Positions 39,417-53,164 are shown, counted from the first letter of the whole stretch. The stretch is DNA of 62,917 nucleotides, filler included, from 4 parts of 4 records of this genome joined end to end with filler, not necessarily neighbours in it, one strand, 5' to 3'. A program made the numbers and translations. The notes: a model not told the origin generated them from the sequence alone.

Positions 39417-40693
39417 TGATTGCCTTGGTAGATTGCAATAGTTTTTACGCTTGCTGCGAGCAAGTTTTTCGCCCCGATCTTTTGGGCAAACCCGTGGTGG
39501 TACTTAGTAATAATGATGGTTGTATAATTGCAGCCAATAAAGAAGCTAAAGCCATTGCAGATATCCCCATGTTTGAGCCTGTTTTTAAAATTAAAGAACA
39601 GTTAATAGCACATAAAGTGAATTTTTTCTCTTCCAATTATACACTTTATGGCGAAATGTCGCAGCGAGTAATGAATATTTTAGGAGCATTTTCTCCAAAT
39701 GTAGAAGTGTACAGTATCGACGAAGCTTTTGCAGATTTATCTGGAATTAAAAATGTTACTTTAGAAGAATACGGGCATCAAATAAAAGATACTGTTTTTA
39801 AGAACACAGGATTGCCGGTTGGAGTGGGAATTGCCCCGACAAAGGGACTGTCTAAACTTGCCAATAAAATGGCAAAGAAAATAGCGAAAAGCAACCATGT
39901 TTTTGTAATTGATTCTGAAGAAAAAAGGATAGAAGCATTAAAGTGGTGTAAAATTGGTGATGTTTGGGGTATTGGTAACAAGCATGCTAAACGCTTAAAA
40001 AATATAGGCGTTTTTGATGCTTTTCAGTTTACGGAATTACCGTTACAATGGGTTCGAAAAGAAATGACTGTGGTAGGCGAGCGTACATGGCGTGAGCTTA
40101 AAGGCGAATCGTGTACTGAATTTGTAACCCAGCCACCCCCCAAAAAAGGAATAGGAACTGCAAAATCCTTCGGCATAAAATTGCCCGATTTAGAGCGTAT
40201 TGAAGAGGCTTGTGCCTATTACATTAGTGAAGTAAGTGAAGTGTTACGTGCTCAAAAATCCTGTGCTACCCATATTCAGGTTTTTATTGTAACTAATTAT
40301 CATAGCAACGTAGATAAGCAATATTCAAACAGCTTGACAATTACTCTGGACATTCCAACAAATGATACGTTTAAGCTTATTTCCGCTGCACGAAAGGCTT
40401 TAATAGCAATTTATAAACCGGGATATCGCTATAAAAAAGTAGGGGTGAACCTTACAGGAATACTTCCGCAGGATTATGTACAGGGCAATTTGTTTCATCA
40501 ACCCTCAAAACTAAACAATGAAAAGCTAATAAAAACCTTTGATGCCATCAATCAGAAGTTTGGAAAAGCTACAATATCTTCTGGTTTGGTGGGAACACGC
40601 GTTAGTGAGTGGGAACTTATTAAAAAAGAACGAAGCTCACGCTATACTACGCAGTGGGGGGAGCTTCTAAAGATAAATTCTAAAAATAATTGA
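39416..40693 (+). CDS. umuC: Y-family DNA polymerase (UmuC / Pol V)
   Basis: ALVDCNSFYACCE, VLSNNDGC, SSNYTLYG, YSIDEAF, SSRYTTQW. Confidence 0.93.
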   Translation: MIALVDCNSFYACCEQVFRPDLLGKPVVVLSNNDGCIIAANKEAKAIADIPMFEPVFKIKEQLIAHKVNFFSSNYTLYGEMSQRVMNILGAFSPNVEVYSIDEAFADLSGIKNVTLEEYGHQIKDTVFKNTGLPVGVGIAPTKGLSKLANKMAKKIAKSNHVFVIDSEEKRIEALKWCKIGDVWGIGNKHAKRLKNIGVFDAFQFTELPLQWVRKEMTVVGERTWRELKGESCTEFVTQPPPKKGIGTAKSFGIKLPDLERIEEACAYYISEVSEVLRAQKSCATHIQVFIVTNYHSNVDKQYSNSLTITLDIPTNDTFKLISAARKALIAIYKPGYRYKKVGVNLTGILPQDYVQGNLFHQPSKLNNEKLIKTFDAINQKFGKATISSGLVGTRVSEWELIKKERSSRYTTQWGELLKINSKNN

Positions 40694-40781
40694 ACGAGCA
40701 TTGATATTTGAAATTTAGCGCTTGACTATTGCTATTACTACTTTTTAATGAATCTCTGCCATCATGTCATAATCTTTTCGC

Positions 40782-40796
40782 TGGCACAATCATTGT
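40782..40796 (+). promoter_or_regulatory. Sigma54-like promoter upstream of dnaK
   Basis: TGGCAC-AATCA-TTGT; -24 GG intact, -12 GC replaced by GT. Confidence 0.5.
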
Positions 40797-40853
40797 CTTA
40801 TACAGTCCGTAAATAAAAAATTTAGAAATAAATAATAACAATAAACAATAGAT

Positions 40854-41225
40854 ATGAGTAAAATAATTGGAATCGACTTAGGTACAACCAACTCCTGTGT
40901 TGCCGTAATGGAAGGTAGCGAGCCAACGGTTATTCCTAATGCCGAAGGAAAAAGAACAACCCCTTCTGTAATTGCATTTGTGGAAGGCGGCGAAATTAAA
41001 GTAGGAGATCCTGCAAAGCGTCAGGCGGTTACAAACCCTACAAAAACAATCAGCTCCATAAAAAGATTTATGGGGAATAAATATTCCGAATCTAAAAATG
41101 AAGCGGAACACGCAGCATATAAAGTTGTAAAAGGTGATAATGACACTGCTCGTGTAGATATTGACGGACGTTTGTACACACCACAAGAATTAAGCGCGAT
41201 GATTCTTCAAAAAATGAAGAAAACT
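40854..41225 (+). CDS. dnaK: DnaK (truncated by contig end)
   Basis: [32 protein letters not shown]. Confidence 0.97.
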
Positions 41226-41325
41226 NNNNNNNNNNNNNNNNNNNNNNNNNNNNNNNNNNNNNNNNNNNNTTAATTAATTAANNNNNNNNNNNNNNNNNNN
41301 NNNNNNNNNNNNNNNNNNNNNNNNN
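41226..41325. other. Artificial contig linker
   Basis: N run with central TTAATTAATTAA. Confidence 0.97.
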
Positions 41326-41513
41326 CTCTTGCAGCGAAGCGGTCTTGTATTTTTATTCGGACATTAATGGTTTCAAATATTCTGATTATCAGTTATTTAT
41401 GATTTTATTTTTTTAAATTGAAGAAAAATATAAAGGCATAAAAAAGTTATAACAATATTTAACGATTCTTATCTTGTAAGAAATTGACTCTTTTTGTAGT
41501 TTTAGCCCCGTAA

Positions 41514-41930
41514 ATGAAACTACTCTATAAAATATTAATATCTTTCATTGTTGTCCTTATAACTGGCTACAGTTTACTGTTTGCTAATAGTAATAAGGAA
41601 GAATGTGGTATTTCTATTATAAATGGTATTGAAAGCTCTACACATTCTGGAGTTGAACTTATTAAAAATGCACAATCTTTAAGTGCATATTCTTTTTCTA
41701 ATTCAGAAAAAAAGAATCACAGATTAGAAATAATAGAAAGCGAAGTTGAGGAAGAGGTAACTTCTTATAAAAAGCAAGTAGAGTTAAATAATTTTATTAA
41801 TTCTACACTTTTCTCTTTAGCACTTATAGCTTTCTTTCCTTTTCCAAAAAAACATTTATTTCACTGTAAGAAATTACCTAACTCATTATCTTACAGATTG
41901 TATGTCATATTTCGAGTATTCCGAATTTGA
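41514..41930 (+). CDS. Hypothetical upstream ORF with signal-like N-terminus and C-terminal YVIFRVFRI
   Basis: 138 aa; hydrophobic N-terminus, acidic EEE linker, second hydrophobic patch; precedes RND operon. Confidence 0.7.
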   Translation: MKLLYKILISFIVVLITGYSLLFANSNKEECGISIINGIESSTHSGVELIKNAQSLSAYSFSNSEKKNHRLEIIESEVEEEVTSYKKQVELNNFINSTLFSLALIAFFPFPKKHLFHCKKLPNSLSYRLYVIFRVFRI

Positions 41931-42095
41931 TTTTAAAGTATTAGAAGGGCAAGAGTCATTGTCTTTCACTTCCGTTTAGTTAAAATTTAAACACAAAGTT
42001 ATTAGCAACAATTAAGGTTGCTATAAGCATCTGCTGTGTTTTTCAAATTTTTAAATAACCTTAAATAATCCTTACGCTTTAAAAGCAAAATTGTT

Positions 42096-43181
42096 ATGAA
42101 GAATACGCTCATAGTGATGAGCTTGTTTGCCTTGTTAAGTCATACAAGTTGTTCATCAAAAAAAGAAAAAGAAAAGAAGGAAGAAGTTAAATTTGCAGTA
42201 ACTACTCCTAAAGTTAAAGACACAATTATTACCGAAGATTATGTGTGTCAAATACAATCCATTAGACATATAGAATTAAGAGCCCAAGAACGTGGGTATT
42301 TACAAAAAATATATGTAGATGAAGGTCAGCATGTAAAAAAAGGCCAATTATTATTTCAGATAATGCCAAAATTATATGAGGCAGAATTTGAGAAAGCAAA
42401 GGCTGAAGCAAATTTTGCAGAAATAGAATACAATAACACTAAAAATTTAGCTGATAACGATATTGTTTCGCCAAACGAATTAGCAATGGCGAAAGCAAAA
42501 TGGGAGAAGGCTAAAGCTGAGTTGGCGCTATCTAATGTTCACCTTCAGTTTACAGAAATTAGAGCCCCATACGACGGAATTATAGACCGTTTTCTTGTAA
42601 GAGAAGGAAGTTTAGTAGACGAAGGAGAATTACTTTCGAGCCTTTCTGATAATAGTGAAATGTGGGTATACTACAATGTACCAGAAGCAGAATACTTGAA
42701 TTACACTACTAGTTTTAGTAAAGAAAATCCTATAGATGTTAATTTATTGATGGCAAATAATCAACTGTTTAAGCACCAAGGAGAAGTAAGTACTATTGAG
42801 GCTGAATTTAATAATGAAACAGGGAACATTCCATTTAGAGCAACATTTCCAAATCCTGAAGGATTGCTTAGACATGGAGAAACAGGAAGTATTATGATGG
42901 AAGTTCCATTTAAAGACGCTATGATAATTCCTCAAAAAGCAACCTTCGAAATTTTAAGTAAGAAGTTTGTTTTTGTAATTGATAAAGATAATAAAGTGAG
43001 ACAAACAGAGGTAAGTGTAAAAGCCGAGTTACCACACTTGTTTATTATAGATAAAGGTCTTTCCGCAAACGATAAGATATTACTCGAAGGGATCCGAATG
43101 GTTAAAGATGGTGAAAAGATAGCGTATGAGCTTGAAAAACCAGATGCTGTTTTAGCAAACTTAGATATGTACGCAGAGTAA
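42096..43181 (+). CDS. RND efflux periplasmic adaptor (MFP), lipoprotein
   Basis: TSC lipobox; ELRAQERGYL, EIRAPYDG, RATFPNP, IPQKA. Confidence 0.93.
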   Translation: MKNTLIVMSLFALLSHTSCSSKKEKEKKEEVKFAVTTPKVKDTIITEDYVCQIQSIRHIELRAQERGYLQKIYVDEGQHVKKGQLLFQIMPKLYEAEFEKAKAEANFAEIEYNNTKNLADNDIVSPNELAMAKAKWEKAKAELALSNVHLQFTEIRAPYDGIIDRFLVREGSLVDEGELLSSLSDNSEMWVYYNVPEAEYLNYTTSFSKENPIDVNLLMANNQLFKHQGEVSTIEAEFNNETGNIPFRATFPNPEGLLRHGETGSIMMEVPFKDAMIIPQKATFEILSKKFVFVIDKDNKVRQTEVSVKAELPHLFIIDKGLSANDKILLEGIRMVKDGEKIAYELEKPDAVLANLDMYAE

Positions 43182-43206
43182 TTCAAACCCATAAAATTAC
43201 AACAAA

Positions 43207-46200
43207 ATGTTTAGTAAATTTATAAAAAGACCCGTGTTGGCTATTGTCATATCGGTGGTCCTCGTTTTTACGGGATTACTGGCTATGAAGCAATTGCCAA
43301 TATCGCAATTTCCGCAAATTGCACCAACTACTGTTAATATCTTTATTGCATACCCAGGAGCAAGTGCAGATGTATTAGTAAATTCAACCTTAATTCCTTT
43401 AGAAACTTCTATAAATGGGGTACAAGGAATGCGTTATATAGCTTCAGATGCAACCAGTGCAGGAGAAGGAACTTTACGTATTATTTTCGAACCAGGTACA
43501 GACCCTAATCAGGCTGTAGTAAGAGTAAAAACTAGGGTTGACCAAGTAATGCCCTTACTTCCAGAACTAGTACAAAGAGAAGGGGTGGTAATTACCCCTG
43601 TACAGCCGAGTATGCTTATGTATGTTAACTTGTTTAGTAAGAATGAGAATAACGATGAGAAATTTCTATACAACTATGCATACACTAAAATAGTTCCAGA
43701 AATACAGCGTATAAAAGGAATTGCAAGTGCTAAAATTTTGGGAAGTCGTAAATATGCAATGAGAGTTTGGTTAAAGCCAGACCGTATGAGAGCTTATAAA
43801 GTTTCTGCTGAAGAAGTTTTAGAGGCTATGGACGAACAAAGTATTATAGCTAGGCCAGGAAGATTAGGTAGAAGTTCGGGTAAAAAGGCACAAGCTTTAG
43901 AATATGTGCTTACCTATCAAGGAAGGTACAATGAACCTGAAGATTATAAAAACATTATCATTAAAGCCAATGAAGATGGGGAGGTTTTAAAATTAAAAGA
44001 TATAGCCGATGTTGAATTAGGAAGTGAATTTTTTGATATTTACTCCAATTTAGATGGAGATCCAGCGGCGTCTATAGTTTTAAAGCAAACCTTTGGAAGT
44101 AATGGTAGTGATGTAATAAAATCTGTAAAAGATAAACTTAAAGAGTTGGAAGCAGATTTACCTCCAGGGGTAGATTATCAAATTGGATATGACGTATCAA
44201 ATTTCTTAGATGCTTCTATTGAACAAGTAGTACATACCTTACGAGATGCTTTTATTCTGGTAGGAATTGTTGTGTTCTTGTTTTTAGGAGATTGGCGCTC
44301 CACGCTGATTCCGATTATTGCAGTACCTGTATCTTTAATAGGAACCTTCTTTGTTATGCAAATGTTTGGACTCTCTATTAATTTAATTACCCTCTTTGCA
44401 TTGGTATTGGCTATTGGTATTGTGGTAGATAATGCTATTGTGGTGGTAGAGGGAGTCCATGTTAAAATTCATGAAGAGAACCTCACGCCATACAAAGCCT
44501 CATATGCCGTATTAGAAGAAATGGGAGGAGCTATTGTTGCTATTACCCTTGTAATGGTTTCCGTATTTATTCCAATTTCCTTTATGTCTGGACCAGTGGG
44601 AGTTTTCTACCGTCAATTCTCTATAACAATGGCGGCTGCCATTATTTTATCGGCGGTTGTAGCATTGACGTTAACCCCAGTTTTATGTGCTATTTTATTA
44701 AAAAACAATCATGGTAAAAAGCGTAGATCTCCTGTAGATAAATTTATAGATTGGTTTAACTCTAAGTTTGATAAGCTTACAGGAAGGTATGTAAAACTAC
44801 TTACATTAATAGTTAATCGTAGAGTAATAACTTTCGGACTTTTAACAGCTTTCTGTGTAGGGATATTCTTTACTAATCAGGTGTTGCCAGCAGGATTTAT
44901 TCCGAATGAAGACCAAGGAATGATTTACGCCATTATTCAAACTCCTCCAGGAGCAACATTAGAGCGTACAAATGAAGTTGCAAAAAAGCTGCAAAAGATT
45001 TGTGAAGAAACCGAAGGAGTAAAATCTGTGTCCTCATTGGCAGGTTATGAAATTATGACCGAAGGTAGAGGGTCAAACGCTGGGACTTGCCTTATTAACT
45101 TAAAACCATGGGATGAGCGCCAACACAGTGTTCATGAAATAATGGAAGAGTTAGAAGAAGAAACCAAAGACCTTGGAGCTGTTATTGAGTACTTCGAGCC
45201 ACCTGCGGTACCTGGTTTTGGATCTTCAGGAGGTTTTGCAATGCGTTTACTCGATAAAACAAGTTCAACAGACTTTCATGAGTTCGAAAGCGTAAATAAC
45301 GATTTTATGGATGCATTGAGAAAGCGACCAGAAATTACAGGTTTATTTACCTTCTTTGCTGCCAATTATCCACAATATGAGTTAGTAATTAATAATAAAG
45401 CTGCTATGCAAAAAGGAGTTTCTATTGGAAAAGCAATGGAAAACCTTAATATATTAATTGGGAGTACGTATGAACAAGGATTTATTAAATACGGAAGATT
45501 TTTTAAAGTATATACACAGGCAGCTCCAGAATATAGAGGAATGCCATCCGATTTAGAAAAGCTGTATGTTAAAAATGAAGAAGGAGAGATGGTTCCTTAT
45601 TCTGCTTTCATGAAAATGGAAAAGAAATTAGGACCTAATGAAATTACCAGATACAACTTATATAATTCTGCCGCAATTAGAGGACTTCCAGCTAAAGGTT
45701 ATACCAGTGGAGATGCTATTAAAGCTATCCGTGAAGTAGCCGAGCAAACGCTGCCAAGAGGATATGATATAGGTTGGGAAGGTCTTTCTTATGATGAAGC
45801 TTCTAGAGGAAATGAATCTTTATACATTTTCGGAGTCGTATTAATATTTGTGTATTTAGTACTTGCTGCTCAATATGAAAGTTTCTTATTGCCATTGGCA
45901 GTTATTCTTTCTTTACCTGTAGGGGTTTTTGGATCTTTCTTATTATTAAAATTAACAGGGTTAGCAAACGATGTGTATGCACAGATTGGAGTTATTATGC
46001 TGGTTGGATTACTGGGTAAAAATGCCGTATTGATTGTAGAATTTGCAGTTCAAAAAAGGCGACAAGGATCTAGTATTATTGATGCTGCTATTGAAGGAGC
46101 AAAAGTTAGGTTTAGACCAATTTTAATGACCTCCTTTGCCTTTGTTGCTGGATTAATTCCTTTAGTAATTGCAACTGGAGCAGGGGCAATAGGAAACAGA

Positions 46201-46449
46201 ACTATTGGGAGCTCTGCCATGGGAGGAATGCTTATAGGAACTATTCTAGGGGTATTAGTTATTCCAGGGTTGTACTTTGTTTTTGCTAAAATGTCCGACG
46301 GACGTGAGCTTATAAAGGATGAAAATACGGAGCCTGTTTCAGAAGAGTTTATGCGTACCGGAGAAGGGGAGAGAAAAACAGAAATGAAGCTTCGCAGAAT
46401 TGATAAACTCATGAAAAAATTAATGAAAAAATCTGACGATGAACAATAA
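43207..46449 (+). CDS. RND efflux permease (HAE1/AcrB-like)
   Basis: FIKRPVLAIV, IGIVVDNAIVVVE, GKNAVLIVEFA, RFRPILMTS. Confidence 0.95.
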   Translation: MFSKFIKRPVLAIVISVVLVFTGLLAMKQLPISQFPQIAPTTVNIFIAYPGASADVLVNSTLIPLETSINGVQGMRYIASDATSAGEGTLRIIFEPGTDPNQAVVRVKTRVDQVMPLLPELVQREGVVITPVQPSMLMYVNLFSKNENNDEKFLYNYAYTKIVPEIQRIKGIASAKILGSRKYAMRVWLKPDRMRAYKVSAEEVLEAMDEQSIIARPGRLGRSSGKKAQALEYVLTYQGRYNEPEDYKNIIIKANEDGEVLKLKDIADVELGSEFFDIYSNLDGDPAASIVLKQTFGSNGSDVIKSVKDKLKELEADLPPGVDYQIGYDVSNFLDASIEQVVHTLRDAFILVGIVVFLFLGDWRSTLIPIIAVPVSLIGTFFVMQMFGLSINLITLFALVLAIGIVVDNAIVVVEGVHVKIHEENLTPYKASYAVLEEMGGAIVAITLVMVSVFIPISFMSGPVGVFYRQFSITMAAAIILSAVVALTLTPVLCAILLKNNHGKKRRSPVDKFIDWFNSKFDKLTGRYVKLLTLIVNRRVITFGLLTAFCVGIFFTNQVLPAGFIPNEDQGMIYAIIQTPPGATLERTNEVAKKLQKICEETEGVKSVSSLAGYEIMTEGRGSNAGTCLINLKPWDERQHSVHEIMEELEEETKDLGAVIEYFEPPAVPGFGSSGGFAMRLLDKTSSTDFHEFESVNNDFMDALRKRPEITGLFTFFAANYPQYELVINNKAAMQKGVSIGKAMENLNILIGSTYEQGFIKYGRFFKVYTQAAPEYRGMPSDLEKLYVKNEEGEMVPYSAFMKMEKKLGPNEITRYNLYNSAAIRGLPAKGYTSGDAIKAIREVAEQTLPRGYDIGWEGLSYDEASRGNESLYIFGVVLIFVYLVLAAQYESFLLPLAVILSLPVGVFGSFLLLKLTGLANDVYAQIGVIMLVGLLGKNAVLIVEFAVQKRRQGSSIIDAAIEGAKVRFRPILMTSFAFVAGLIPLVIATGAGAIGNRTIGSSAMGGMLIGTILGVLVIPGLYFVFAKMSDGRELIKDENTEPVSEEFMRTGEGERKTEMKLRRIDKLMKKLMKKSDDEQ

Positions 46450-47890
46450 AAAGGGAATTATGTTACACTCTAAAAAAACGTATCTGGTTGGGATTATTGC
46501 TATAACAACCCTTTATTCTTGTGTTCCAACTATTAAAAGTATGGAAGCAGATAAGTCGGTTCCAGAGCAATTTAAGAATCAAACTACAGACAGTTTGAAT
46601 ACCGCCCAAATTAAATGGAAGGAGTACTTTACCGACCCATATTTGGATAGCTTGATTGGAATTGCTTTGGAAAACAATCAGGAATTAAATATTACGTTAC
46701 AAGAAATCCAAATTGCTAAGAGTGAAGTGAGAGCCAAAAAAGGAGAGTATATGCCTTCAATTGGACTTGGAGCTGGAGCAGGGCTTGAAAAACGTGCGCG
46801 TTATACAAGTTTAGGAGCTAATGATGCCACTACAGATATTAAACCAGGAGAAGAAATGCCAGATCCGCTTCCAGATTTTATGCTGGGAGCGCATGCCTCT
46901 TGGGAAGTAGATATTTGGGGTAAACTACACGATGCTAAGAAAGCAGCAGTGAGCAGGTATTTATCTTCTGTGGAAGGGAAAAATTTTGTGATTACTAATT
47001 TAATTGCTGAAATAGCTAACTCTTATTACGAATTATTAGCTCTTGATAATCAGCTTGAAATTGTAAAACAGAATGTTGAGATTCAATCTAATGCTTTAAG
47101 GATTGTAAAACTTCAAAAAGAAGCTGCTAAAGTTACAGAGTTAGCAGTTCGTAAATTTGAAGCAGAAGTGCTTCATACAAAGAGTTTACAATTTGATATT
47201 CAGCAGAAAATAACAGAAACGGAGAATAGAATTAATTTCTTAACAGGAAGATATCCTCAGCATATAGAGAGAGATTCAAAATCGTTTACAGAATTATCTC
47301 CTAGTATGATTCATACTGGAGTTCCCGCACAATTGCTAGAAAATCGTCCAGATATTAGACAAGCAGAATTGGAATTAGCAGCTTCTAAATTGGATGTTAA
47401 AGTTGCCAAAAAAAGATTTTATCCTAGTCTAGATATTACAGCAGGGATTGGATATCAGGCTTTTGATACCAAATATCTTTTTACTTCTCCAGAATCTCTA
47501 TTGTATAATGTTGCAGGAGAGTTAACAGCGCCTTTAATTAATAGAAGTGCTATAAAAGCAACATATTACAGCGCAAACGCACAGCAAATACAAGCTGTTT
47601 ATAATTATGAACAAACGGTTTTAAATGCGTATGTAGAAGTGGCAAATCAGCTAGCAAAAATAGATAATATTAAGCAAAGTTATGACCTTAGATCTCAGGA
47701 GGTAGCTGCGCTTACCAGATCAATAGATATTTCTAATATTCTGTTTAAATCTGCCAGAGCAGATTATATGGAAGTGTTGTTAACGCAACGCGATGCATTA
47801 GAGTCTAAGTTTGATCTTGTTGAAACAAAAATGGAACAAATGAGTGCGATGGTAGAAATGTATCGCGCACTTGGTGGCGGATGGAATTAG
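46439..47890 (+). CDS. TolC/OprM-family outer membrane efflux lipoprotein
   Basis: LYSC lipobox; WEVDIWGKL, LLENRPDIRQAE, YRALGGGW. Confidence 0.93.
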   Translation: MNNKKGIMLHSKKTYLVGIIAITTLYSCVPTIKSMEADKSVPEQFKNQTTDSLNTAQIKWKEYFTDPYLDSLIGIALENNQELNITLQEIQIAKSEVRAKKGEYMPSIGLGAGAGLEKRARYTSLGANDATTDIKPGEEMPDPLPDFMLGAHASWEVDIWGKLHDAKKAAVSRYLSSVEGKNFVITNLIAEIANSYYELLALDNQLEIVKQNVEIQSNALRIVKLQKEAAKVTELAVRKFEAEVLHTKSLQFDIQQKITETENRINFLTGRYPQHIERDSKSFTELSPSMIHTGVPAQLLENRPDIRQAELELAASKLDVKVAKKRFYPSLDITAGIGYQAFDTKYLFTSPESLLYNVAGELTAPLINRSAIKATYYSANAQQIQAVYNYEQTVLNAYVEVANQLAKIDNIKQSYDLRSQEVAALTRSIDISNILFKSARADYMEVLLTQRDALESKFDLVETKMEQMSAMVEMYRALGGGWN

Positions 47891-48058
47891 CATTCGTAAT
47901 GATTAATTAATCCTGAATTTAGTGTTAGTAAGGTTCCCTCATTCTTACTTTAAAAATAGGATTAGTTTTTTTTGATTAGTGTTTGGTTGATGTCCATTTT
48001 GGATGCAACCAAAAGAACAGAATAGTGGTTAGAGATTAGTAAAACTATCTGTTTAAAG

Positions 48059-48092
48059 AAGCCTTCAGCATTTTTTTTGCTGAAGGCTTTTT
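48059..48092 (+). terminator. Intrinsic terminator of the RND operon
   Basis: AAGCCTTCAGCA-T loop-TGCTGAAGGCTT followed by TTT. Confidence 0.8.
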
Positions 48093-48201
48093 GTATGTTA
48101 AAAAGATGAAAAAGAGTGCTAAAATTTTGATAAACCAACTGAATATTATTGTGTTACGGTTTTATGATGTGTAAATTTAAGTAACCAAAAAGTTAGAAAT
48201 T

Positions 48202-48525
48202 ATGAAAAAAGAAGCGTTAATTTCCATATTATATAAATGTGTTGCCAAATGTTACCATTGTGCAGATGCTTGTTTGGAAGAACCAATGGATATGAGTAAC
48301 TGTATTCGATTAAATAATGTATGTGCTACTACATGTAATGCTTTAGCAGAAGTATTATCAACCAATTTCAAGGAAACCTCAGGGTTGATTAATTTCTGCT
48401 TCTTTGTTTGTCAGCAATGTGAAAAGGAGTGCGAGCAACACACTAATAATCATTGTCAAGTTTGTGCACAGGCTTGTAAGGAATGTGCTAATGCTTGTCA
48501 GGAATATCTACAAGAACACGATTAA
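48202..48525 (+). CDS. Cys-rich four-helix bundle copper-binding protein (DUF326/Csp3-like)
   Basis: Repeated CxxxC/CxxC motifs (CVAKCYHCADAC, CQQCEKEC, HCQVCAQACKECANAC); no signal peptide. Confidence 0.85.
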   Translation: MKKEALISILYKCVAKCYHCADACLEEPMDMSNCIRLNNVCATTCNALAEVLSTNFKETSGLINFCFFVCQQCEKECEQHTNNHCQVCAQACKECANACQEYLQEHD

Positions 48526-48687: not shown

Positions 48688-49662
48688 TTAAAATACGCCT
48701 GCTTTCAACAACAGACCTTCGGTTTCGGGGAAACCGAACATTAGGTTCATATTTTGTACTGCTTGTCCCGATGCCCCTTTCAATAAATTATCAATGGCCG
48801 ATGTAATCAAAAGAATATCATTGTGCTTGTGCAAATGGATGTGGCACTGGTTGGTGTTCACTACTTGTTTTAGATGCAGTTCTTCATCCGACATGTGGGT
48901 GAATACAGCGTTTTTGTAAAAATCGTTGTACAGCTTCTTTGCATCCTCCAAGTTGCCGTTGTATTTGGTGTACGCCGTGGCCAAAATTCCACGGGTGAAG
49001 TTGCCTCGATTCGGTAAAAACATCAATTTGCCCACGGAATTTCCGAAGGAATTCAAGCTTTCACCGATTTCGCCCAAATGCTGGTGCGTAAAAGGTTTGT
49101 ACCATGAAACGTTGTTGTTCCTCCAGCTAAAATGTGAGGTGTCGGACAGTCCAACGCCAGCCCCAGTGCTGCCTGTAACGGCATTGATATGGACGTCATC
49201 ACTCAATAAACCTGCCTTTGCCAAAGGCAACAACGCCAATTGAATGGCAGTAGCAAAACAGCCAGGGTTGGCAATGGCCTCCGCGGATTGTATGGCAGAC
49301 TTGTTCAATTCGGGAAGGCCATAAATAAATCGTTGCCCCTTAAAATTGGAATCCGCTTGTAACCTGAAATCATTGCTGAGGTCAATGATTTTTGTTGATG
49401 CAGAAAACTGGTTCTCGTTCAAAAACGATGTTGAATTGCCGTGTCCCAAACAAAGAAAGACCACATCGACCTTTGGATTTATCTCCCCTGAAAATTTCAA
49501 TTCTGTTTGTCCCAGCAAATCCTGGTGGGCGGAGGTAATCGGCTTACCAGCTCTCGTGGTGCTGAAAACAAAGTCAATTTCGGTTTGGGGATGATTGAGC
49601 AAGAGTCTGATCAGTTCCCCACCTGTGTAACCCGAACCTCCTATGATTCCTGTTTTGATCAT
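48688..49662 (-). CDS. argC: N-acetyl-gamma-glutamyl-phosphate reductase
   Basis: GGSGYTGGEL, IDLSNDFR, ANPGCFAT, IDNLLKGASGQAVQNMN. Confidence 0.96.
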   Translation of the reverse strand: MIKTGIIGGSGYTGGELIRLLLNHPQTEIDFVFSTTRAGKPITSAHQDLLGQTELKFSGEINPKVDVVFLCLGHGNSTSFLNENQFSASTKIIDLSNDFRLQADSNFKGQRFIYGLPELNKSAIQSAEAIANPGCFATAIQLALLPLAKAGLLSDDVHINAVTGSTGAGVGLSDTSHFSWRNNNVSWYKPFTHQHLGEIGESLNSFGNSVGKLMFLPNRGNFTRGILATAYTKYNGNLEDAKKLYNDFYKNAVFTHMSDEELHLKQVVNTNQCHIHLHKHNDILLITSAIDNLLKGASGQAVQNMNLMFGFPETEGLLLKAGVF

Positions 49663-50846
49663 GAATCTTGGTTTACGTGGTTGGCTATTTTTCCTGAGTT
49701 GGACAAAATTTTGATAAAGCCCTTGGCATCGTCAGCGGTCCAACCTTTGTTCATTTCACCATAACTTCCAAAGGAAGCGTTCATCAAATCGTGTTGTGAA
49801 GTGATGCCGTTCAAGTCGAATCGGTAGGGGTGCAACGTGACGAAAACATCGCCTGATACATGTTTCTGGGTGTCGGTCAAAAAGGCTTCGATGTTTCGCA
49901 TCACCTCGTCCAAATAGTTACCTTCGTGCAATAGCATGCCATAAAAATTGCCCATTTGCTCTTTCTGATATTGTTGCCATTTGCTCAAGGTGTGTTTTTC
50001 CAACAAATGGTGCGCTTTTATAATGATCAATGGGGCCGCGGCTTCAAAACCGACCCGTCCTTTGATTCCGATAATCGTGTCTCCCACGTGGATATCTCTA
50101 CCAATGGCGTATTTGGATGCAATGGCGGACAATTTTTCGATGTTGGCCACAGGAGTGTCCTGCTCGCCGTCCAATGCAACCAATTCACCATTTTTAAAGG
50201 TCAACTTCAACTCTTTGGATAGTTCTTTTTCCAATTGGCTCGGGTACGCACTTTCTGGTAATGAAAGGTGAGAAGTCAAGGTTTCATCGCCTCCCACGGA
50301 CGTGCCCCATAATCCTCGGTTTACGGAATATTTGGCTTTTTCCCAAGAGTAATCGATACCGTTTTGTTGTAGGTAGTTGATTTCTTCCTCCCTGGCCAAT
50401 TTTTTATCTCTTATTGGTGTGATGATCTTGATGTTCGGAGCTAAGATTTGAAAGATCATATCGAACCTAACCTGATCGTTTCCTGCTCCTGTGCTCCCAT
50501 GGGCGATGTATTTGGCGCCAATTTTTTTGGCGTGGTTCACAATCTCGATAGCCTGAACGATTCGTTCTGCGCTTACGGAAAGGGGATAGGTGTTGTTTCG
50601 GAGCACATTTCCGAAGATGAGATATTTTACCACTTTCTCATAAAATGTTGCAACGGCGTCAATAGAGGTGTAGCTGGTTGCGCCAAGGGCAAGCGCTTTT
50701 TCCTCGATTTCCTCGATTTCAGTTTTGCTGAAACCGCCTGTGTTCACACTTACGGCATGCACTTCAAAACCTTCTTCTTGTGATAGGTATTTGGCACAAT
50801 ATGACGTATCCAATCCACCACTATATGCTAAAACTAATTTTTCCAT
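49659..50846 (-). CDS. argG: Argininosuccinate synthase
   Basis: LAYSGGLDTS, AHGSTGAGNDQVRFD, GIKGRVGFEA. Confidence 0.96.
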   Translation of the reverse strand: MEKLVLAYSGGLDTSYCAKYLSQEEGFEVHAVSVNTGGFSKTEIEEIEEKALALGATSYTSIDAVATFYEKVVKYLIFGNVLRNNTYPLSVSAERIVQAIEIVNHAKKIGAKYIAHGSTGAGNDQVRFDMIFQILAPNIKIITPIRDKKLAREEEINYLQQNGIDYSWEKAKYSVNRGLWGTSVGGDETLTSHLSLPESAYPSQLEKELSKELKLTFKNGELVALDGEQDTPVANIEKLSAIASKYAIGRDIHVGDTIIGIKGRVGFEAAAPLIIIKAHHLLEKHTLSKWQQYQKEQMGNFYGMLLHEGNYLDEVMRNIEAFLTDTQKHVSGDVFVTLHPYRFDLNGITSQHDLMNASFGSYGEMNKGWTADDAKGFIKILSNSGKIANHVNQDS

Positions 50847-50975: not shown

Positions 50976-51590
50976 TTAACTATCTTTCTTTTTTAGGAAA
51001 AGGTGTTCCTTAATGCTTTTCAGCCTTTGAAACGCTTTTTTATTGAGTTTTTCAGGCTCGTGTTTTTTTGTATTGGGGTCGTACAGCATGCCAGTGCACA
51101 GGCACATCTTTTTTTCTGTGCGTGTTAGAATATCAAAGTTCTTACAGGTCTGACAACCTTTCCAAAATTCGGGATCGTCCGTAAGTTCGGAAAATGTAAC
51201 AGGTTTATAGCCCAGTTCGTAGTTCATTTTCATTACGGCAAGTCCCGTGGTGATACCAAATATTTTGGCTTCAGGGAATTTTTTTCTGGATAGATCAAAA
51301 ACTGCCTTTTTGATTTTTTTGGCAAGTCCTTGGTTTCTGTAATCGGGATGTACGATCAAACCGGAGTTGGCCACAAAATCCTTGTTTCCCCAGACCTCGA
51401 TATAGCAGAAACCCGCAAATTTATTGCCATCCAAGGCAATGATGGCGTTTCCGTTCTGGAGGCGTTTTATAATATATTCGGGAGTACGTCTGGCAATACC
51501 TGTACCGCGGACTTTGGCCGATTCGGTAATGGTATCGCTAATGATCTGTGCGTATTTAAAATGTGATTCGTTAGCAACAATAATTTCCAT
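50976..51590 (-). CDS. GNAT acetyltransferase, probable short N-acetylglutamate synthase heading the arg operon
   Basis: SGLIVHPDYRNQGLA acetyl-CoA motif; FWKGCQTC, CLCTGM; first gene before argG-argC. Confidence 0.8.
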   Translation of the reverse strand: MEIIVANESHFKYAQIISDTITESAKVRGTGIARRTPEYIIKRLQNGNAIIALDGNKFAGFCYIEVWGNKDFVANSGLIVHPDYRNQGLAKKIKKAVFDLSRKKFPEAKIFGITTGLAVMKMNYELGYKPVTFSELTDDPEFWKGCQTCKNFDILTRTEKKMCLCTGMLYDPNTKKHEPEKLNKKAFQRLKSIKEHLFLKKKDS

Positions 51591-51681
51591 TGCAAGCGAT
51601 TGTTCTGTAAAAAATTAAAAAAATAGATTTGGTCGTTCTGCGGAAATGGACTCACCTATTTCCAATAGATATGAAGCACCC

Positions 51682-51765
51682 TTACGGGCGACGACGACGG
51701 GGAGTAAATGGACTGATAGGAGCAGCGATGCTCAAAGTAAATGGTATGTACTGGTATCCTTTCAT
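51682..51765 (-). CDS. Arg-rich leader peptide MKGYQYIPFTLSIAAPISPFTPRRRRP (27 aa)
   Basis: Hand-translated: ATG at 51765, CGT CGT CGT CGC CCG TAA ending at 51682, 91 nt before the arg operon. Confidence 0.8.
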   Translation of the reverse strand: MKGYQYIPFTLSIAAPISPFTPRRRRP

Positions 51766-51811
51766 TCTGAAGCTAAAGTACAAATTAATTCGAATTGTAC
51801 TAAAGTTGAGG

Positions 51812-53164
51812 TCACTTTTTGAGGAAATATAACTTTTTAGGCCTACTTCCTATTATTTCATAAATAAAAAACCCAATTACCAAAATGTATTCAATGGCCA
51901 ATAACCAAAGGTTTTCTTTGTAATCGGGATTAGAATATGCATAGTAACTCAGAACAACGGCGAAGGACCACACGAATGGGAACCTGTAATCGGTAAACAC
52001 GGCAATGCCCAAAAGGAACACCACATACCAAGGATGCACGGTGCTGGAGAGAAAATAATAGCAGGCCAATGCTAACATTATGGATGTGATGACGCTTTCC
52101 AGTTTTTGGTTTTTCCGAAGGAAAGCAAGCAGCAAAATGATAACGACCACCACTCTTTGTATTACTGAACCATAGGAATCGATCAATTCCCAAGGTTTGG
52201 CTTCATAATAAGTGACCGCAATCTTTTTAACGACATTGTATATGCTGGCATTGAACTCAAAATTGGTGAACCATAGCCCAACGGTATCCGAATAATTATC
52301 GATAAATACGGAGGAATAAAAAGGAAACAGCAAAGCCCCGCACCCCAATAGTATCAAAGCGTAAAAAACAACACTCTTTTTTAGCCCGAAGTATTTTACA
52401 AAAAGCGGCAGGAACATCAGGGGCATTAGCTTTACCATGATGGAAATGGCATATATCGGGGTTGACCATAACCATTTATTTTTGGCAATGAGATACAGGG
52501 CCCAAACAAAGAAAAAGAGCATTACACCTTCAAAATGCAGGTTGCCCGTGAGTTCGATGATGACCAATGGATTCAAAAAGTACCAAAATGCCAAATGGTT
52601 GGCCTTGTTCAGGTGCTGTAAAAGCTTTCTTCCAAAATAAAGCACACCTAAATCCGCAAGAATCACTATCAACCGCATGGCAATGGTGGAACCTAAAACG
52701 CTTCCTCCTCCCAAAATTGATGCAATGGCAAAAAGAACTTGGTTGATTGGGGGATAATTGCTGTAGTGACGTGCATTGAGGTCGGTCATTCCTTCATGCA
52801 GTTCCTTCATGCTGGGGAATGATACCGTGCCCTGCTCCATAATTTGGTCGGGTGTGTACAAATACGGGTTGATGCCGTTTTTGATGAGTTCACCATCCCA
52901 AATGAACCTATAGAAATCCTGTGAAAGATTGGGTTCGGCAATCAAAAATACCAACCGAAAAAGTATTCCAACGACCAATAGGAACTTAAAGTTCCATTTT
53001 TCGAACTGGATAATTTTGGAAGTAAGGTAAAAAAGTGCCCCATAGAGCATGAACAACTTAATGAAGTCCGTACGGACCAAGTTGTATGCAAAACTCCAGT
53101 AGAACAGAATACAAGCGACAGCAAAAAGTATCGGGTATTTGTGCAGTCGCCAATAAGATTGCAT
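51812..53164 (-). CDS. GT-C membrane glycosyltransferase (GT87/mannosyltransferase-like)
   Basis: LSQDFYRFIWDG, NPY, YPP, LNPLVIIE..GNLHFE, VHPWY. Confidence 0.82.
   Translation of the reverse strand: MQSYWRLHKYPILFAVACILFYWSFAYNLVRTDFIKLFMLYGALFYLTSKIIQFEKWNFKFLLVVGILFRLVFLIAEPNLSQDFYRFIWDGELIKNGINPYLYTPDQIMEQGTVSFPSMKELHEGMTDLNARHYSNYPPINQVLFAIASILGGGSVLGSTIAMRLIVILADLGVLYFGRKLLQHLNKANHLAFWYFLNPLVIIELTGNLHFEGVMLFFFVWALYLIAKNKWLWSTPIYAISIMVKLMPLMFLPLFVKYFGLKKSVVFYALILLGCGALLFPFYSSVFIDNYSDTVGLWFTNFEFNASIYNVVKKIAVTYYEAKPWELIDSYGSVIQRVVVVIILLLAFLRKNQKLESVITSIMLALACYYFLSSTVHPWYVVFLLGIAVFTDYRFPFVWSFAVVLSYYAYSNPDYKENLWLLAIEYILVIGFFIYEIIGSRPKKLYFLKK

Follow-up and report, generated by a model that had tools for sequence, protein, structure and literature searches.

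How is arginine biosynthesis controlled in bacteria that lack ArgR? The question is raised by an mRNA leader on the minus strand of a stretch of DNA of 62,917 nucleotides (four parts of four records of one genome joined end to end with filler; hereafter the window), in which a short upstream open reading frame (uORF) whose product ends in P-R-R-R-R-P-stop precedes genes for a GNAT acetyltransferase, ArgG and ArgC (Table 1). Arginine biosynthesis is the textbook case of control by ArgR. Leader-peptide attenuation is customarily described for Trp, His, Leu, Thr, Ile/Val and Phe, and to our knowledge Arg is not usually among them. An original prediction, made from this sequence by itself, had placed an unannotated arginine leader peptide at this site. 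We find that the element is the leader of an arginine-biosynthesis mRNA of a Flagellimonas-like flavobacterium (the GNAT is 96% identical to GNATs of Flagellimonas (Muricauda) species), and that it is built as a module of five components, all of them conserved: a uORF that is nearly leaderless and ends in RR(R)(R)P, a hairpin (P1) with the stop codon in its loop, a U-rich linker, a second hairpin (P2) and a G-poor spacer that reaches to the GNAT start codon. We consider it moderately probable that the leader peptide senses the charging of Arg-tRNA and that the output is delivered through the P1/P2 fold, by Rho or an RNase, with no classical terminator. The GNAT, argG and argC genes are presumed to be under the control of this leader.

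The absence of ArgR, to which the original prediction had drawn attention, extends to the family as a whole: the C-terminal domain of ArgR (PF02863) was found in none of 151 Flavobacteriaceae genomes, regulators of other types lying outside this search, and was duly recovered from the positive controls (8 model genomes including those of Bacteroides thetaiotaomicron, Escherichia coli and Bacillus subtilis). Among 151 genomes sampled at the level of the class it was present in 5, and in two of those five argR adjoins the GNAT gene.

In the window, translation agrees with the originally described minus-strand ORF of 27 codons with four consecutive Arg codons followed by Pro and a stop, and 91 nucleotides separate this uORF from the GNAT start. 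The codons CGT and CGC account for 173 of the 13152 codons of the window's long ORFs, from which simple arithmetic gives a chance of about 3e-8 per position for four of them in a row; because of this figure, and because the arrangement recurs in 92 genomes from about 90 genera, the Arg run is more than a chance occurrence. A GNAT protein is present in 23 of 41 relatives, and at nearly all loci of the same family a small ORF ending in ...RRR(R)P-stop is found 5' of its gene. We built a covariance model from the 65-nucleotide core common to 20 leaders, which comprises the 3' end of the uORF together with P1 and P2, and searched with it the same family genomes, which represent 150 genera, taking matches with E 6e-8 or better as strong. 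The model recovered one strong match in each of 92 genomes, weak matches only in 3 and an extra weak second match in 2; in the 62.9-kb window it has a single match. The argG gene was found in 101 of the family genomes, 92 of which have the strong motif and 9 of which are without it, and there was no strong match in any of the 50 argG-negative genomes. In those rows of the motif and argG lists that were compared, the motif shares the strand of argG and precedes it by some 0.7-2 kb. At the level of the class, the 151 genomes yielded a match to the family's reference genome alone and one additional weak match, and the RNA module is thus family-specific.

Of the best 80 named loci, which include representatives of Flagellimonas, Zobellia, Maribacter, Arenibacter, Eudoraea, Muriicola and Sediminicola, 79 have the motif together with an in-frame ATG ORF, and the remaining one differs by a single base in the top of P2. 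The expected RRR(R)P-stop uORFs are accordingly found upstream of orthologous arg operons, here and in the wider set of leaders analyzed below. One genus of the family (3 genomes, L117-L119) has the GNAT gene with neither an Arg-rich uORF nor P1 and P2 upstream of it.

The structure of the module was studied in an alignment of 100 matches, namely 99 true ones and one weak extra site, L114. Standard pairs fill 96.5% of the alignment cells, compensatory changes are seen at 9 of the 13 pairs, none of 500 shuffles matched the covariation score, and sliding the partners by 1-3 columns lowers pairing to 27-61%. The 5' arm of P1 consists of the last Arg codon and the CC of the Pro codon; the four inner pairs are formed in 95-97 of the 100 rows and the outermost in 72. 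The placement of the stop codon inside the hairpin CGCCC-GUAA-GGGUG, as first described, is correct and the hairpin is kept in 99 relatives. P1 is nearly invariant (CGCCC/GGGUG), with CGCAC/GUGCG in 4 sequences, where one pair has changed from C-G to A-U such that the helix is kept and the Pro codon becomes a Thr codon. The linker that follows has 13-16 nucleotides, with a mean U content of 57% and G content of 8%, and its sequence itself is variable. The lower stem of P2 shows compensatory changes at 6 of 6 pairs (P1 and P2 also had the support of covariation in an analysis of 20 sequences); its bulge is an A, sometimes extended to 2-3 nucleotides, and its top, GG-UGNGU-CC, is nearly invariant. 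This top is evidently paired, because GG:CC is replaced by GA:UC in 5 sequences. From the end of P2 to the ATG there is a median of 48.5 nucleotides (interquartile range 47-52, n=96), with a mean G content of 7% in the spacer and no U-tract or hairpin in it that is conserved across the homologues. P2 had gone unnoticed in the original prediction, as had a hairpin within the uORF (P0) and the start of the uORF almost at the 5' end of the transcript.

Folded as a single sequence, the leader is no more stable than its shuffles (z +0.65), and a search of Rfam 15 with 51200..52200 at E up to 10 gave no relevant match, its two chance-level hits being SNORD41 and a plastid 3' UTR motif. Docking of the P1 GUAA loop on the GG:CC of P2, modeled on the familiar rule for such loops, was discarded as not general, as the loop varies to UUAA, CUAG, GUAG and UUGG. 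The Shine-Dalgarno-like GGAG/AGGUG in P2 was likewise ruled out, as the stem covaries away from it and GG:CC changes to GA:UC. The extra site L114 (G116:C1:629453-629509) is a weak second match with an E of 5.5e-6, and possesses only a P2-like hairpin, AAAGUC-AGGUGAUUCC-GAUUUU.

Several lines of evidence suggest that the uORF is translated. In 72 of the 99 leaders an in-frame ATG ORF reaches P1, as against 9 and 4 in the other two frames, and the median open frame is 39 codons in the Arg frame compared with 14 and 15 in the others. A stop codon directly follows CGC-CCN in 90 of the 99; TAA is used in 84 leaders, TAG in 14 and TGA in 1. The Arg codons among the last 8 codons of the 72 uORFs are CGC (126), CGT (121), CGA (4) and AGA (1), so that CGY makes up 98% of the C-terminal Arg codons as against 38% of the Arg codons in the window's genes (in the window's 27 long ORFs CGT, CGC and AGA have shares of 25%, 12% and 30%). 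Indels beside the Arg run are of 3 or 6 nucleotides, and in 70 of 79 named relatives the uORF has 25-27 codons despite differing peptides. Widely as the peptides vary, every one has RR(R)(R)P or something close to it at its end, preceded at a few residues' distance by a Phe.

This conserved end could also point to an arrest peptide: ...F-x-P-RRRR-P would, with free arginine bound, keep the ribosome at the stop codon, as TnaC does with tryptophan or as the fungal arginine attenuator peptide (AAP) does, and the stalled ribosome would set the fate of the leader. The leader peptide of tnaC in the E. coli tryptophanase operon ends in Pro-stop, and the held ribosome masks the RNA from Rho; the AAP, encoded by the arg-2/CPA1 uORF, is found upstream of an arginine-biosynthesis gene and responds to arginine at the termination codon; and a Pro before the stop is a poor context for termination. 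RR(R)(R)P-stop is indeed the best conserved feature of the peptide (RRRP in 37 and PRRP in 15), TRRRP, PRRRP and RRRRP endings occur in 56 of the 79 named relatives, a Phe at a distance of 5-8 residues from the stop recurs in every architecture and is seen in other families too (as ...FF.RR*), and the position of the stop is fixed in the 90 leaders mentioned above. However, the replacement of Pro by Thr in the 4 sequences described above is accompanied by a compensatory change in the 3' arm of P1, which implies that RNA pairing rather than the Pro is kept and weakens the case for arrest. Moreover, the uORFs have anything between 1 and 4 Arg codons, the remainder of the peptide is unconserved and ranges from 8 to about 47 residues in length, and the strict choice of CGY would be unnecessary for an effect of the peptide. 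The parallels are also limited: in tnaC a free amino acid is sensed through the nascent peptide and a catabolic operon is induced, whereas here the Pro is replaceable and the operon biosynthetic; the AAP is eukaryotic, blocks scanning, depends on the peptide and not on codons, and bears no sequence relation to the uORF of the window. We hence regard arrest by the nascent peptide as distinctly improbable.

The leaders fall into different architectures. Type A, to which the window belongs, was selected by a -7 box TACATTTG followed by ATG after 7-8 nucleotides, this gap being part of the selection, and takes in 24 leaders of the even sample of 99 as well as nearly all of the 79 named close relatives; in most of these 79 loci the box is at -15..-8 or -16..-9. 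According to a study of Flavobacterium johnsoniae, transcription starts 4-5 nucleotides after the -7 element, and leaders are longer than 10 nucleotides in 87% of transcripts (PMC6847099). As the ATG of type-A leaders comes 7-8 nucleotides after the box, the transcription start in the window would thus lie 2-4 nucleotides before the uORF AUG, at a predicted position of about 51768/51767, and the uORF would be nearly leaderless; a uORF starting this close to the 5' end is unusual. P0 is found at a fixed place in the window's subgroup, and a hairpin folds at this position in most of 22 type-A leaders, with stems that differ between genera (GAGCA/UGCUC, CAAGGUU/AACCUUG, CUGGG/CCCAG and UGGCA/UGCCA), the covariation here being judged by eye.

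Type B comprises 17 leaders (L010, L028, L053, L061, L068-L070, L076, L080, L081, L084, L093, L096, L098, L102, L103 and L108) with an additional, truly leaderless Arg-rich uORF upstream, where the gap after the box is mostly 4 nucleotides. This upstream uORF has 22-24 codons, ends in ...RNRRR-stop or similar, and is situated about 200 nucleotides 5' of P1. Its A-rich first codons pair with a U-rich stretch past its stop, forming a terminator-like helix in 17 of 17 minimum-free-energy folds. About 70 nucleotides downstream follow a mini-ORF, (M/V/I)RRxFxRRP-stop, and then P1 and P2. Type-B leaders are hence predicted to be tandem arginine sensors in a single leader. Their terminator-like helices therefore indicate that Flavobacteriaceae do use ordinary attenuator terminators for arginine, and the window's type has either lost a terminator or never had one.

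For the window itself, a scan of 51400..52000 recovered 0 terminator-like sites, and the original view that there is no classical terminator here stands. Of the U-rich tract that had been placed before the GNAT start, its presence (~51621..51607) is verified and its conservation across the family is not; the 9 positions after P2 contain 0-6 U among the homologues and 0 in the window, and thus hold no conserved U-tract either. The second hairpin that had been proposed, AUCUAUU-GGA-AAUAGGU (51670..51654), can be drawn, but against shuffled linkers its pairing has a mean z of +0.19 in the 99 homologues, with z < -2 in 2% of them, and P2 overlaps and excludes it. We found no antiterminator/terminator alternative in the window's type: the pairing of the linker with P2 stays at that chance level, and RNAalifold on 22 type-A leaders returns P1 and P2 alone. 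A helix between the 5' end of the uORF and the U-run of the spacer is no better than in shuffles, with a mean z of -0.05 in the 22 type-A leaders and +1.86 in the window. Sequestration of the GNAT start was also considered and rejected, as the mean unpaired probability of -20..+10 in 41 leaders is 0.50 in the full fold, compared with 0.52 when a ribosome occupies the Arg codons and 0.55 when it occupies the stop.

These results bear directly on attenuation of the classical trp/his type, in which a hidden terminator and an antiterminator in the window would be chosen by the position of the ribosome. Such a scheme could draw on the terminator-like helices of the type-B arg leaders of the same family, on the ilvE and hisG leaders of Flavobacterium psychrophilum, which are of this kind according to the transcriptome study (PMC9723704), and on the window's own 5' codons AUGAAAGGAUAC, which are pairable with CUAUUUUUUUAA followed by a U-run. 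Against it stand the empty terminator scan, the lack of a conserved U-tract past P2, the chance-level pairing against P2, the unremarkable helix of the uORF 5' end with the spacer and the consensus fold of P1 and P2 only, and we judge it to be very unlikely for the window. Taken together, the absence of a terminator, of an alternative pairing and of a change in start accessibility lead us to favor a factor-dependent shut-off of the ribosome-free leader as the most likely output. Candidate factors are at hand, as 5 of 5 relatives have genes for Rho, for RNase E/G and for RNase Y, and the last 46 nucleotides of the uORF contain on average 34.5% C and 19.9% G (43.5% and 17.4% in the window, where the strand has 19% C).

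Based on these observations we propose the following mechanism. The speed of the ribosome over the CGY codons would give a readout of the charging of the Arg-tRNA that decodes them. When arginine is scarce, the C-rich Arg tract would bring one or more ribosomes to a stall, and with these keeping P1 open and covering the transcript's 5' part the operon would be expressed. When arginine is ample, the ribosome would reach the stop in the P1 loop and depart, and the naked leader would fold into P1-linker-P2. The stalled and departed states would thus differ in the occupancy of the C-rich tract and P1 and in the folding of P1-linker-P2, and the folded, ribosome-free leader would be shut off by a factor rather than an intrinsic terminator. 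The factor could be Rho, which would load on the C-rich tract once this is exposed, or it could be RNase E/G or Y, with cleavage in the AU-rich linker that separates P1 from P2. The sensor part of this scheme, a tandem run of CGY codons in the arg-operon leader of organisms that lack ArgR, is well supported; what we infer is the output step, that arginine is the signal, which way the response goes and what the effector is.

Several observations weigh against this proposal. An in-frame ATG is absent from 27 of the 99 homologues. In a set of 27 short-type leaders, 13 have ATG at the Met position, 4 a near-cognate start and 10 GTA, GAG or ACT; the P1/P2 module can thus be kept where translation from this site is in doubt. 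Folds of the 41 leaders with the ribosome masked show no consistent shift in the accessibility of the start site. The C-richness of the uORF is largely a matter of its CGY and CCN codons and falls partly within P1, and it does not count independently in favor of a Rho utilization (rut) site. As P1 would be opened by both a stalled and a terminating ribosome, the geometry of the switch is not obvious. Finally, neither the Rho nor the RNase model explains why the P2 top is invariant and why the spacing between P2 and the ATG is conserved; this top and the distance of about 49 nucleotides to the start could be a sign of some specific partner or of a part played in initiation.

Some of these points would suit an RNA-only cis-regulator, in which P1-linker-P2 is riboswitch-like or protein-binding (with arginine or a guanidinium compound as ligand, or else an RNA-binding protein as partner) and the ORF is secondary. 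The covariation of P1 and P2, the near-invariance of the P2 top (A-GG-UGNGU-CC) as for a specific contact, the conserved linker length and P2-to-ATG distance and the leaders that lack an in-frame ATG are all in line with it, and the type-B module, placed 3' of a separate attenuator, may have a function of its own. Yet the excess of in-frame ORFs (72 versus 9 and 4), the 3-nucleotide indels and the conserved uORF length indicate translation, and the stop codon shares the reading frame of the tandem CGY triplets. Conserved unpaired nucleotides that could form a ligand pocket are few, the linker sequence is variable, and Rfam offered no match even at E up to 10. A regulator of this kind is therefore quite unlikely in our estimate. 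We entertain with some reservation, as an unlikely but less remote variant, that P1-linker-P2 is a new type of attenuator effector whose folding is gated by the ribosome terminating in the P1 loop, with P2 recruiting Rho, an RNase or another protein, or binding arginine. If this were true, arginine synthesis in Flavobacteriaceae would be under a termination-coupled RNA switch that operates without alternative hairpins, an intrinsic terminator or ArgR.

The favored reading, in which charging of Arg-tRNA is sensed by translation of the uORF, places the leader beside the trp, his, leu, thr and pheA attenuators and those of ilvE and hisG in Flavobacterium psychrophilum: as in these, a short 5' ORF has a run of codons for the end product, is conserved across orthologous operons and ends within overlapping hairpins. 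Unlike them, it concerns arginine, the textbook ArgR case, and has no intrinsic terminator and no choice between antiterminator and terminator; its stop lies in a hairpin loop, its ORF is nearly leaderless, and it has a second hairpin with an invariant top. A precedent is orf34 of Salmonella speF, where consecutive Arg codons make the progress of the ribosome arginine-dependent, with Rho termination and RNase G as outputs, and uninterrupted translation at high arginine leads to an RNase G-sensitive fold (PMC6386406). However, speF encodes ornithine decarboxylase, its leader is enterobacterial and Shine-Dalgarno-dependent, with two Arg codons in a 34-codon ORF, and peptide and RNA are unrelated to those of the window. 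In Staphylococcus aureus the small, unannotated leader peptide rbfL detects a shortage of arginine by way of Arg codons of a particular tRNA; it differs from the leader of the window in using rare AGA/AGG codons, occluding the following gene's ribosome-binding site and lowering a biofilm regulator when arginine is scarce (PMC13009471).

Within the phylum, the F. psychrophilum transcriptome paper describes leader-peptide attenuation 5' of amino-acid operons and lists the ilvE and hisG leaders in supplementary file 8, and the term argG is absent from its supplements (PMC9723704). A Breaker-lab survey of 26 genomes reported other uORF motifs and none for arginine in Bacteroidota. A full-text search, which excluded subscription journals and bioRxiv supplements, retrieved no description of an arg leader for Flavobacteriaceae or Bacteroidota. 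Leader-peptide control itself is known; what would be new is its use for arginine, in combination with a conserved RNA module of a distinct kind and in the absence of a terminator.

A whole bacterial family that is abundant in the sea and lacks ArgR thus carries a conserved Arg-codon leader on its arg operon. The misfit of this leader with the terminator/antiterminator scheme could show how Bacteroidota, which do without Shine-Dalgarno sequences, couple translation of a leader to gene control. At about 190 nucleotides, near leaderless and with three small hairpins, it is easy to test, and the covariance model offers annotators a handle on an unannotated element that occurs once per genome.

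Table 1. Features of the arginine leader and of the genes that follow it in the window (positions counted from the first nucleotide of the window)
Feature	Coordinates	Strand	Remarks
-7 box TACTTTAG	51780..51773	minus	Bacteroidota type TAnnTTTG with last T replaced by A; ATG 7 nt later
Leader ORF (uORF)	51765..51682	minus	27 codons and stop; translation MKGYQYIPFTLSIAAPISPFTPRRRRP*
P0 hairpin GAGCA-UCGC-UGCUC	51733..51720	minus	inside uORF; fixed place in the window's subgroup
Arg codon run CGT CGT CGT CGC	51699..51688	minus	presumed sensing codons; followed by CCG TAA
P1 hairpin CGCCC-GUAA-GGGUG	51690..51677	minus	stop UAA in loop; conserved in 99 relatives
uORF stop codon UAA	51684..51682	minus	in P1 loop
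Linker CUUCAUAUCUAUU	51676..51664	minus	single-stranded, U-rich, of conserved length
P2 hairpin GGAAAU-A-GG-UGAGU-CC-AUUUCC	51663..51642	minus	covarying lower stem, nearly invariant top
Spacer, P2 to GNAT start	51641..51591	minus	A/U-rich, G-poor, of conserved length
GNAT acetyltransferase, 204 aa	51590..50976	minus	N-acetyltransferase model match weak, below cut-off (NCBIfam)
argG	50846..49659	minus	TIGR00032, 270 bits, above cut-off (NCBIfam)
argC	49662..48688	minus	TIGR01850, 315 bits, above cut-off (NCBIfam)

The arg operon ends after argC here, and the remaining arg genes are outside the window. Directly downstream of argC, on the opposite strand, 39380..48525 is occupied by accessory genes, including those for a Csp1-like copper storage protein, a three-part RND efflux pump, a 139-aa N-terminal fragment of DnaK and a UmuC-like polymerase; this looks like an inserted block that cut the arg operon. 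The nominally nearest genome compared (G001) shares 31% of the window's 31-mers, yet its GNAT is 73% identical to that of the window as compared to 96% for Flagellimonas, and some of the DNA in the window may be mobile or have been shared recently.

Four of 22 RNA runs, all in the form of contigs, were aligned. A metatranscriptome contig ends at 51656 inside P2, and a 22-kb contig from an RNA library is probably DNA; both are uninformative on transcript starts, ends and levels. Two short repeats also occur in this region. AGUCCAUUU is present twice in the window, in the uORF before the Arg run (51704..51712) and in the 3' half of P2 (51644..51652), and so is GGAAAU, in the 5' strand of P2 and at the GNAT start (51585..51590, AUGGAAAU). 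They could permit alternative pairings and are not kept in other genera; a four-segment model that had been drawn by eye from these repeats was dropped, as they are lost in genus g1 and in the type-B leaders.

Beyond the family, an ATG ORF of at most 60 aa containing RR lies 5' of the GNAT gene in 13 of 29 loci. In another family of the order the peptide MILYRRRPVRV* precedes the GNAT gene and is followed by a hairpin and a U-run, and in several families of the class the uORF ends in ...FF.RR-stop and an ACGC...GCGU hairpin carries this stop in its loop. Five loci from other families of the class (L132, L133, L138, L140 and L144), with the hairpin ACGC-UGAU-GCGU around the stop, represent a different conserved arg leader, in which UACGCGGA downstream could pair with GCGUA, a possible switch of the classical kind.
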